A stretch of DNA of 58,768 nt, counting the filler, from Platydemus manokwari (lineage: Eukaryota), in NCBI GenBank assembly GCA_037951405.1. It is 5 parts of 5 records of this genome, joined end to end, with 100 filler letters (N's around TTAATTAATTAA, not from the genome) between each part and the next. Parts side by side here need not be neighbours in the genome. Positions count along the whole stretch, not along the records: positions 1 to 9,265 come from JBBMOY011274873.1; 4 more parts are not named here. One strand, written 5' to 3'. Under the pieces are notes generated by a model, which was not told where the DNA came from, made no database searches, and saw only the letters and a list, made by a program, of their open reading frames with translations. Position numbers and translations under genes: made by a program. This document shows, one piece after another, positions 1,298 to 4,380 of this stretch (positions are counted from its first letter, which is position 1; the number at the start of each line of letters is the position of its first letter).

Positions 1298-2303
1298 TCA
1301 CAAAGTTGTCATGGTATATGACCTATTATTCATTCGTTTCTTTTCTTTCCATCTTCCTATCATCATCACCATAAATGGTGTCGTTATGGCTAATAGTATC
1401 ATTGAGGTGGCTATTAGCGCAATCATTACTTCTGCTCTATTTATCATTTTTATTCTTTCTATAGAGAGTGTAGAGCTTAATAATTTTTGCACGAATGGTA
1501 TTATTTCGTTATTTTCTTCATCTGGATTTTTCTGGCTATCCTGTGATAGTATTTGCCTTTGGTCTATGTCATTTTTGTTAATTTGCTTAATGTATGACCA
1601 TAATTGTGGTGATATCTTTCCCATAATTAGTTTTAATTTTTTAGTTATTGTTGCTTGAGTGGTTGTTGTATTTCTTCTTATGGTTATTCTTTTTTGTATC
1701 GTTGTTCGCCAATCACAATTTATTGCAAGTTTTATATCGTGTCTTGTTTTCTTGTGTATTTCGTGTGGTGTATAAGGCATGTGTTATAATTATTATATAT
1801 TTTTCACATGGATCTCGTAGTAGATGCATTGTTTTAGGCTTATATTCTAACATGGTATAATGCTTAGCTTCCTTTTTATTTTCTCCTATCACTGTGGCTC
1901 TTATTATATCGTCAGTACTTTCATCTTTAATAATTGAGAGGTATCGTCTATCGGATTCTATTGTCATTCTTGTAAAATGTGGCCTTAATTGTATTTCAAC
2001 TATATCTCCATCTATTAACGTATGATTATTTTTGACATAACACCATAGTTCCATTTTCACCGCGATGACTTGATTTGGTTGTAACCTTTCGAATACATGT
2101 TCCTTAGTTACTATTGCTGAATCGATAAGTTTGTTCTTATAAGTATATAGTTTTATCTTGTTTTAATAAGGTATCTTTTCGGGTACGTGAATTGCTATCC
2201 AAAATTCCGCCCAATTTAGACTCCAGTTATGTCTGATAAGAGGTGGCTTAGTATAAATGTGACAGTTGGCTATGGTTAATATATTCAACAAGGTGATCAT
2301 CAT
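1298..2303 (-). pseudogene. Element-encoded type I membrane protein at the env position: signal peptide, two FN3-like beta-sandwich segments, Thr-rich stalk, TM helix, basic tail
   Basis: Manual translation from ATG 2303 gives MMITLLNILTIANC-HIYTKPP..., in frame (one internal TAA near 2164) with track ORF 1713-2060. One frameshift near 1715 joins ORF 1298-1780, which has RRNTTTTQAT, TM VMIALIATSMILLAITTPFMVMMIG and RWKEKKR. N-glycosylation sequons NWS, NHT, NKT, NTT. Confidence 0.7.
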
Positions 2304-4380
2304 TAAGGTATGTGATTTAAGTGGATATCTATGGCTGGTTGAACCTTGTTTACTTGTTGATGGTCTAGCTTCACTATTTTCTGTTTCTATTACTCCTATC
2401 TGTTTTGGTTTATTTATTGTTTCGTTTTCATATTAATCATATTTTTTACATCGCTCAGCGTGAACCCATATTAGATCAGCTTTATTTTTGCCTCGTGGTT
2501 ATACTACTAGATTAGTATCTGTTACTTTTTCTACTATATATGGTTTCTTATATGGTCGTATTAATTTTGGTGATATTCCTTTCTTACATGTTCGATTTTC
2601 TATCATCACTTTGTCTCCTACTTGGATTGAATGACTTTTCCGATTTTTATCGTAATACTCTTTTACCTGTTCCTGTCTATATTTAATATTGAGATTCGCT
2701 CTTTGCCATGCTTCCGCGAGTCTTTCTTTCATTAGTACCGCATAATCTTCAACATCCATGTATTGGGATATTTTAGGTTCAATTACTATATCTACTAGCA
2801 TATTACTTTCACGAAGATACATAAGGTAGAAGGGGGTATATCCTGTTGTTTCATGAGTTGCACCATTTTCTCACATCCATTTTCATGGTTCTCCAGTGAT
2901 ATTTCTGTTTTAGTCTCGATAATGTTTTACGAATAGACAAATGTCCTCCTATAGTTCCATCATGATATTGAAGTAGTAAAGTTTCCTTTAACTTTTCCGG
3001 TACTATTATGAGGTATTTTGTTCCATCGTCATATTTTAGCACATCTCCTTCAAATATAAATTTTGCTTTATTTTTCTTTAGGTATTTGGTCAGAGTCTTG
3101 GGAGGCATTCCCAGTGGGGTTCTTATTATATTTTGCCAACTTTTTGGCATTTCTTCCATTCCAATAGTAATTCCATATATTTTGACGTCTTCCATCTGTA
3201 ACCTGCTTATATCGATAATATCTTGCATTTGGTGACTTTTTTGCACTATATTTGCTTGTTCTAATTCGTAGGCTTCTGGTATTGCTCTGGATAAAGCATC
3301 TGCATTTCCGTTATTTTTTCCTTTCCTGTAAAATATTTTTATGTTATATTGCTGTAATTTATATGCCCATCGTATAAGTCTAGAAGCTGTATCTCTATGT
3401 TGGAGTAACCATTGTAGAGGTCTATGGTCTGTAAGTACATGTATTTCTTGTCCGTAAATATAAGATCTGAACTTCTCAACTGCATATACTATGGCTAACG
3501 CTTCTAGTTCTATTACGGCATAGTTCTTTTCGTGTGTTTTTAATCCTCTGCTTACATAGGCTATAGCGTATTCCTTTCCATTTTCATTAATTTGTCCTAG
3601 TACCGCACCGATGGCATAACTACTTGCGTCCGTCATGATCAAGAACGGCTCATTGAGCACAGGATATCTCAGAATTGGTTCCTATATGAGTTTGTTTTTA
3701 AGCATGTTGAAGGCTTTTTCTTGTTCATCATTCCAGACGAAAGGTTTATTTTTTTGAAGTAGAATAGTAAGTGGTGTAGAAATCGCTGCGCAGTTCTTAA
3801 TAAATTTTCTATGGTAATTTACTAGCCCTAAGAATTCTTGTATTTGTTTCGTAGTTTTTGGTCTTGGGAATTTTTCTACTTTTTCTACATAAGCTTTATC
3901 AGGTTTACCTCCTTCACCTGATATAACATGTCCCAGATATTTCACTTTCTTTCTTCCCCATACGCATTTTGTTGGTTTGAGTTTTACATTGGCTGTTATC
4001 ATTCGATCAAAGACTTGAGATAAGTCTTCTAAGTGTTCCTCAAAGTTATTTGAAAATATTATTACATCATTGATATATACCATAGCATGTGGCAGTCCCA
4101 TTAATATAATATACATTGCAAATTGGAAGTTAGGTGGAGCTCCTTTTAGTCCGAAAGGCATTACTGTCCATTCAAGTAACTTTTCCCCATCGGTGAATGC
4201 TGTTATTGGTATTGATTCTTCGTCCATTAGTATATTGTTAAATCCCGTTTGTAAGTCAAGTGTTGAGAATATTTGGGCTCCTCTTACCTTATTGAGCATA
4301 TTCTCTATCAGAGGTAATGGAAAGTTGATTGATTTTGTTTGTTCATTTACTTTTCTATAATCAATGCATAATCTCTGTGA
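2304..4380 (-). pseudogene. pol: Gypsy pol (RT, RNase H, integrase Zn finger and C-terminal domain; integrase core deleted)
   Basis: RT motifs RLCIDYRKVN, FSTLDLQTGF, VMPFGLKGAP, VYINDVIIFS (YxDD changed to YIND), YLGH. In-frame TAG at 3682-3684. RNase H motifs TDASSYAIGAVL, ELEALAIV, TDHRPL, NGNADALSR. Integrase HDGTIGGH...WCNS, then HETTGYTPFYL and GPY/F-like KLIRPYKKPYIV; further stop at 2499-2501. Confidence 0.93.

Follow-up and report, generated by a model that had tools for sequence, protein, structure and literature searches.

Retroelements are generally taken to carry a single envelope protein. In nematodes, flatworms and bryozoans, elements with an env have the order GAG-ENV-POL and an env of gB type, and no GAG-POL-ENV order was found in nematodes, according to the portion of PMC13524379 used here. 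In these errantiviruses (Nematoda, Platyhelminthes and Bryozoa) a gB-type fusogen stands before a Ty3/gypsy pol, as in three relatives of our element (P0123, P0128 and P0130), and no second membrane protein behind the integrase is described in that portion, which gives the entry of gB errantiviruses as unexplained and notes that herpesvirus gB needs gD, gH and gL. The planarian Burro/GYPSM1 giant gypsy elements encode one huge polyprotein in which env lies in frame, after gag and before pol, and bear extra cargo such as ankyrin repeats, which our relative P0022 also has; their accessory ORFs may stand alone or be fused, and neither FN3 nor a post-integrase membrane protein is described in the part of that source used (PMC6431247). 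The BIR, BCL2 and MATH domains of the Burro comparison were not seen here. In rotifer LTR elements the post-pol slot holds short transmembrane (TM) proteins or a DEDDy exonuclease rather than a true env, and the ORF3 is a separate frame for which FN3 is not named in the sections used (PMC5408684), whereas the protein described here is in frame with pol. No published description of a second membrane protein behind the integrase was found in a search limited to open-access text and a small share of the supplements; the kind of element is known, and its second, post-integrase membrane protein is apparently unreported.

The window, that is, the whole stretch of 58,768 nucleotides of Platydemus manokwari DNA that was analysed, sits in AT-rich genome DNA and contains, on the minus strand from base 4383 to base 1, a decayed Ty3/gypsy element with the domain order RT, RNase H, integrase (Pfam and tblastn; Table 1). 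Its reverse transcriptase aligns with the relative P0123 from residue 2482 on. The integrase catalytic core has been deleted, leaving P0123 residues 2979-3144 without counterpart, and the integrase C-terminal part shows 49-53% identity to six relatives and 36% to P0020 (tblastn). This copy of the element is dead; it runs off the stretch at base 1, and its break at 4383 adjoins another repeat and an N gap. Compared with the published GAG-ENV-POL errantiviruses, the part where env would lie is lost. No remnant of gag, env or protease, or of anything else upstream of the RT, was found within the window; because the copy is cut inside the RT beside a repeat and an assembly gap, this missing part says nothing on a fusogen.

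Table 1. Features of the decayed element and other features of the window, with positions counted along the whole stretch.
Feature	Position	Strand	Basis and remarks
Reverse transcriptase, start cut off	3682..4383	-	PF00078 E 1.8e-27; stop at 3682-3684
RNase H and integrase zinc finger	2854..3681	-	PF17917 E 7e-38; PF17921 E 6.7e-16
Integrase C-terminal part	2436..2861	-	tblastn; stop at 2499-2501
Integrase tail linker	2304..2435	-	RYPLKS motif at 2313-2330; same motif type in relatives
Signal-peptide-like segment MMITLLNILTIANC	2262..2303	-	in frame with integrase; same place in relatives
Beta-rich ectodomain, two units, likely FN3	1716..2261	-	third-position bias; stop at 2163-2165
Rest of ectodomain	1430..1783	-	stalk rich in Thr and polar residues; may include part of a third FN3-like unit
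TM helix (1373-1429) and basic cytoplasmic tail	1298..1429	-	hydropathy; stop at 1298-1300
Next frame of the element	914..1288	-	begins 9 bases after membrane-protein stop; strong signal-like start
Coding remnant, three frames (381-980, 205-393, 3-287)	3..980	-	covered by contigs of the same repeat family
AT-rich hairpin-like repeat	4385-4450 and 4691-4937		contig depth 12486; at the element's 5' break, then N gap
Host gene	10549-17258	+	weak WD40 match; by eye presumably DCAF1/VprBP-like
Frame without family match	17539-18507	+	by eye presumably transposase-like
Host gene	26131-26757	-	PH_13 domain; by eye presumably intersectin-like
Host gene	34278-35917	-	rhodopsin-family receptor
Host gene	54025-55278	-	ubiquitin hydrolase

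A single minus-strand frame extends from 2870 to 1716, through the integrase tail and the signal-like segment into the ectodomain; three codons and no stop separate the RYPLKS motif (2330-2313) from MMITLLNILTIANC (2303-2262), and the lack of a stop here confirms the preliminary description. From the signal start to its stop the membrane protein spans about 334 codons. Damage to the frame consists of stops at 2499-2501 and 2433-2435, both in the integrase end, a stop at 2163-2165 in the ectodomain, and a frame change somewhere within 1716-1783, also inside the ectodomain.

Related DNA from two sequencing runs (822 contigs of run X1 and 20 of run X2 on bases 1-4450) was compared with the window over 2135-2530, where 40 of 51 differences to X1 were listed; the comparison was informative on the stop at 2433-2435. 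Third codon positions held 25 of the 40, and 12 of the 15 that fell in the signal segment and ectodomain at 2166-2306 (binomial p 0.0003), a bias that rules out a chance open frame; elsewhere the parts gave 3-5 places each, too few to inform. There were no indels among the listed differences, and a codon-by-codon check by hand found none of the 40 that creates a stop between integrase and signal segment. The stop at 2433-2435, directly behind the C-terminal module of the integrase, is not common to the family: contigs amounting to 1698 of a depth of 1712.5 (n = 9) have another letter in the codon, and a genuine pol stop at this place was ruled out, most of the X1 depth being without it. The main family was not sampled at every base, since X1 depth falls to about 230-250 at 2261-2288 and 2373-2400, and no single contig covers all of 2135-2530. 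Summed X1 depth over the element was 900-3600, against 11-30 for single divergent contigs, which suggests many copies of the element but is not a copy number.

Relatives were collected with an RT-RNase H search among proteins of 894-2550 residues (at least 120 matches), the floor of 894 residues favouring long tails. Seven proteins stood out, with 46-49% identity across the full query; for six of these, identity over the integrase end was 52-54%. When integrase end and ectodomain were used together as a phmmer query (best 150 of 3167 matches), P0128 and P0130 were added, giving the nine clade relatives P0010 (cluster mate P0123), P0011, P0013, P0014, P0019, P0020, P0022, P0128 and P0130. In the RT-RNase H tree (45 of 123 rows used) the window and the nine grouped with a bootstrap of 100 and an SH-aLRT of 100, and an earlier tree (44 of 121 rows) likewise grouped the window with its relatives at full support; the window's branch within the clade is long and deep (0.63-0.68), and what its dead copy adds is mainly this very divergent branch.

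All of the clade relatives (n = 9/9) have an unbroken frame from the integrase into a signal-like segment, and none of the listed X1 differences puts a stop there either. The TM helix is reached in eight of the nine, P0019 ending within the ectodomain. A repeat of roughly 90 residues occurs in one to three copies in eight of them; in P0130 it was recognised by eye and by alignment, not by the first profile. The remaining relative, P0020, has a short Cys-rich ectodomain without the repeat in the post-integrase slot (residues 1063-1222), and judging by this replacement the slot is swappable. A protease-like domain lies between integrase and signal segment in P0022 and P0128, together with ankyrins in P0022, and P0013 has, besides the post-integrase unit, a further one of signal, FN3-like domain and TM ahead of its protease (residues 45-231). 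Outside the clade, the integrase end could be located in 81 proteins, one of which has a tail with signal and TM. The nearest relative over the integrase end, P0124 (56%), ends three residues past the motif, on a contig of 1053 bases, at a stop or at the contig end; P0126, P0127, P0129, P0132 and P0134 also end without a signal segment, and these short relatives, P0124 among them, have no RT and are therefore outside the tree. Taken together, we hold with high confidence that the integrase continues into a protein with signal, ectodomain and TM helix.

The relatives also bear on what the post-integrase slot is. P0123 is one frame of 3735 residues that encodes, in this order, a capsid-like region with zinc knuckles, a PF24664 fusion glycoprotein, a protease, RT, RNase H, integrase, signal, two repeats, Thr stalk and TM. 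The gB-type fusogen PF24664 lies before the protease in P0123 (E 1e-91) and in P0128 and P0130 (E 2e-84 and 3e-95), so that it is present in each of the three relatives whose intact frame extends that far upstream; the frames of the other six of the nine begin in the protease region or behind it and have no fusogen in them, which speaks neither for nor against its presence. The pol of the window groups (100/100) with the GAG-ENV-POL elements P0010 (the cluster mate of P0123), P0128 and P0130. Judged by domain order, these three are GAG-ENV-POL elements, the window's element likely belongs to the same kind, and the post-integrase slot is not the env position, because the fusogen is upstream of the protease in three relatives. 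The protein had been described as being at the env position and as taking the place of a classical Env; neither statement agrees with these three relatives, which carry a fusogen besides the post-integrase protein. A fusogen was quite probably present upstream in the window's own family as well. A Cer1-like single pol-env reading was dropped; the part of PMC3315495 used contains nothing on env.

The membrane protein itself is predicted to be of type I (signal, ectodomain, one TM helix, tail), a topology that fits its hydropathy and agrees with the preliminary description. Its signal-like segment, which opens with Met-Met, has modest hydrophobicity (Kyte-Doolittle 2.16 for the best 11-mer), and the TM segment (1429-1373) reaches 2.16 over 19 residues. 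By motif it was correctly called a non-fusogen: no furin-type site (R-x-K/R-R or R-x-x-R) was found in either piece of the protein, and hydropathy showed no hydrophobic stretch between signal and TM, so the classical Env arrangement of a furin site before a fusion peptide is absent. Neither piece had a Pfam match, whereas the true fusogens of the relatives match strongly. Of the two beta-rich segments of about 90 residues and the Thr stalk reported earlier, the beta-rich character was borne out, and the number of units, their borders and the full extent of the stalk were not; part of the stalk may belong to a third FN3-like unit.

An FN3-like fold had been proposed for these segments. In the clade it is predicted for one relative: an AlphaFold model of the P0011 ectodomain, built from an alignment of six ectodomains with P0011 first, had a pLDDT of 87.7 and two FN3 domains, and in Foldseek against PDB all 37 listed rows were FN3 proteins (best E 2.8e-7). 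Whole-model TM-scores were only 0.32-0.47, probably because the two modelled domains are set at another angle; a single P0011 domain matched 2ee3 with a VIA-align Z of 9.5 (rmsd 3.1 A over 80 residues), and the Atlas placed the ectodomain in fn3 clusters (0.92). The repeat profile of the relatives gave ten matches among PDB sequences (best E 0.0013), nine of which we take to be FN3-bearing, and Pfam fn3 was below cut-off in two of six cases. The repeats are related to one another, 11 of 12 beating all 300 shuffles when their own protein was left out of the profile. In a listing of 50 viral fold matches to the P0011 model, none was named as a fusion glycoprotein, a result that still allows for a fusogen match. 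A seven-strand FN3 sandwich is thus predicted for the clade's post-integrase protein, by way of P0011.

For the window's own ectodomain the FN3 reading had position and a weak motif match behind it. Two word searches returned no relatives of this ectodomain, the best 150 of 3167 phmmer matches all leave it uncovered, no Atlas family or Pfam match was found, and phmmer against PDB sequences yielded nothing usable for it or for the downstream frame. With hhalign only the L-x-P stretch aligned to the relatives' profile (E 0.084). On that profile, shuffles did as well as unit 1 or better in 23 of 1000 and in 109 of 2000 cases, and for unit 2 in 998 of 1000 and in 1885 of 2000; in a global test the two units had z values of 0.6 and 2.0, while one control reached 2.05. 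The piece at 1640-1783 beat 1990 of 2000 shuffles but had a z of -0.19 in the global test. These outcomes, marginal or negative, differed from one method to another, and three control pieces from the window turned out to be translated off frame (integrase in the 2000-shuffle test, RT and RNase H in the global test). The cysteine pair of the relatives is absent, and a single-sequence model, all-beta with a pLDDT of 37 and a best fold-search Z of 3.4, was uninformative; structure prediction favoured FN3 for the relative P0011 and was unusable for the window. Since FN3 is predicted for the same slot in the same clade, and with the weak motif match, the window's ectodomain is nonetheless likely to have been of this fold.

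Our preferred explanation, to which we give an even chance, is that the locus is what remains of a gene for a second surface glycoprotein, a predicted one and probably of FN3 fold, at the end of the polyprotein of a Ty3/gypsy element likely of the GAG-ENV-POL kind, where it would have been the attachment partner of a gB-type fusogen encoded upstream. In herpesviruses gD or gH/gL partner gB, and in paramyxoviruses HN, H or G partners F, so that the fusogen has a distinct second surface protein, of type I or II, at its side; the comparison is made as an analogy only. In the polyprotein envisaged, Gag would be made in the cytosol, the Env signal would take the chain into the ER with Env in the lumen, and the Env TM would return it, so that PR-RT-RH-IN is made in the cytosol. 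The internal signal behind the integrase would then re-enter the ER, placing the FN3 units in the lumen, followed by the TM and the tail, and signal peptidase would free the FN3 protein. Before protease and signal peptidase act, Pol would be anchored in the membrane on either side, and this layout would yield capsid, enzymes, fusogen and attachment protein in equal numbers. On the surface, the FN3 protein might bind a receptor or trigger the fusogen, as gD or gH/gL would for gB. By this analogy, an attachment role stands at about one chance in two. With somewhat less assurance, we suggest that this whole animal Ty3/gypsy clade may have a two-protein entry machine, in which a gB-type fusogen and a fast-evolving, swappable FN3 receptor-binder would come from one polyprotein crossing the membrane four times, and the FN3 protein would set which cells are entered. 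A conserved type I glycoprotein of predicted cell-adhesion fold, the second in the same polyprotein, is a candidate partner for the gB-type errantivirus fusogen, and a membrane protein behind the integrase need not be an env.

Close behind attachment comes a role in interference or as a decoy. The protein may have stayed on the surface of the cell that made it, blocking receptors against sister elements or mimicking host FN3 receptors of signalling or immunity, without being needed for entry, a reading that we consider rather unlikely. It would suit the very fast divergence of the ectodomain, set against 51-56% identity to relatives in RT-RNase H, but such divergence fits a receptor-binding protein equally well. 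The varying make-up of the slot (one to three units, the extra copy before the protease in P0013, another domain in P0020) and the host-modulating cargo that Burro elements bear, in the part of PMC6431247 used, also point this way, yet all nine placed relatives retain the protein in a single position and in one frame with Env and Pol. It is improbable that the family had no fusogen and that the membrane protein was its only surface protein, serving cell-to-cell passage by adhesion. The window's lack of a gag, env or protease remnant, its long and deep branch, and the six relatives without a fusogen in their recorded frames would be in keeping with this; however, absence is uninformative in a copy cut where this one is, and every relative with a frame far enough upstream has the fusogen.

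The preliminary description had left it between release from a polyprotein and reinitiation, and release is favoured, because four relatives (P0011, P0013, P0022 and P0130) have no Met within 25 residues before the signal segment, which disfavours reinitiation at the level of the clade. The contrary reading, that the frame is continuous but the protein was made separately, either through reinitiation at the Met-Met or from a transcript of its own (spliced or internal), perhaps with a non-FN3 beta module swapped in as ectodomain, seems very improbable to us. A Met lies at the signal segment in P0010, P0014 and P0019, as in the window, the window's ectodomain has no significant match to the relatives' repeats, and Drosophila errantiviruses make env from spliced RNA; against this, the open frame has been kept clade-wide through a variable linker and through the protease or ankyrin domains inserted in P0022 and P0128.

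Several minor observations concern the searches and the rest of the element. Viral contigs gave eight chance matches of 22 residues only, and metagenome contigs gave seven distant gypsy loci, the one inspected having no such tail. Aspartic-protease-like extra domains also lie behind the integrase in P0126 and P0127, and tails of more than 900 residues with hydrophobic segments follow it in P0044, P0057 and P0060, which belong to another clade (chromodomain gypsy). P0019 and P0130 are animal retroelement polyproteins filed as proteins of bacterial MAGs (Turicibacter sp. and Flavobacteriaceae bacterium), labels that likely reflect host contamination of the bins. The coding remnant at 3-980, which by eye we take to be like a REX4/ISG20-type (DEDDh) exonuclease without the catalytic acids, had no exonuclease profile or database match. 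The frame at 914-1288 had no family match in Pfam, PDB-sequence and profile searches, and its fusion to the membrane protein across the stop at 1298-1300 was a reading not adopted. With three Cys and a start whose hydropathy reaches 3.25 per 11 residues, this frame possibly encodes another protein of the element, its third to be secreted or membrane-bound.
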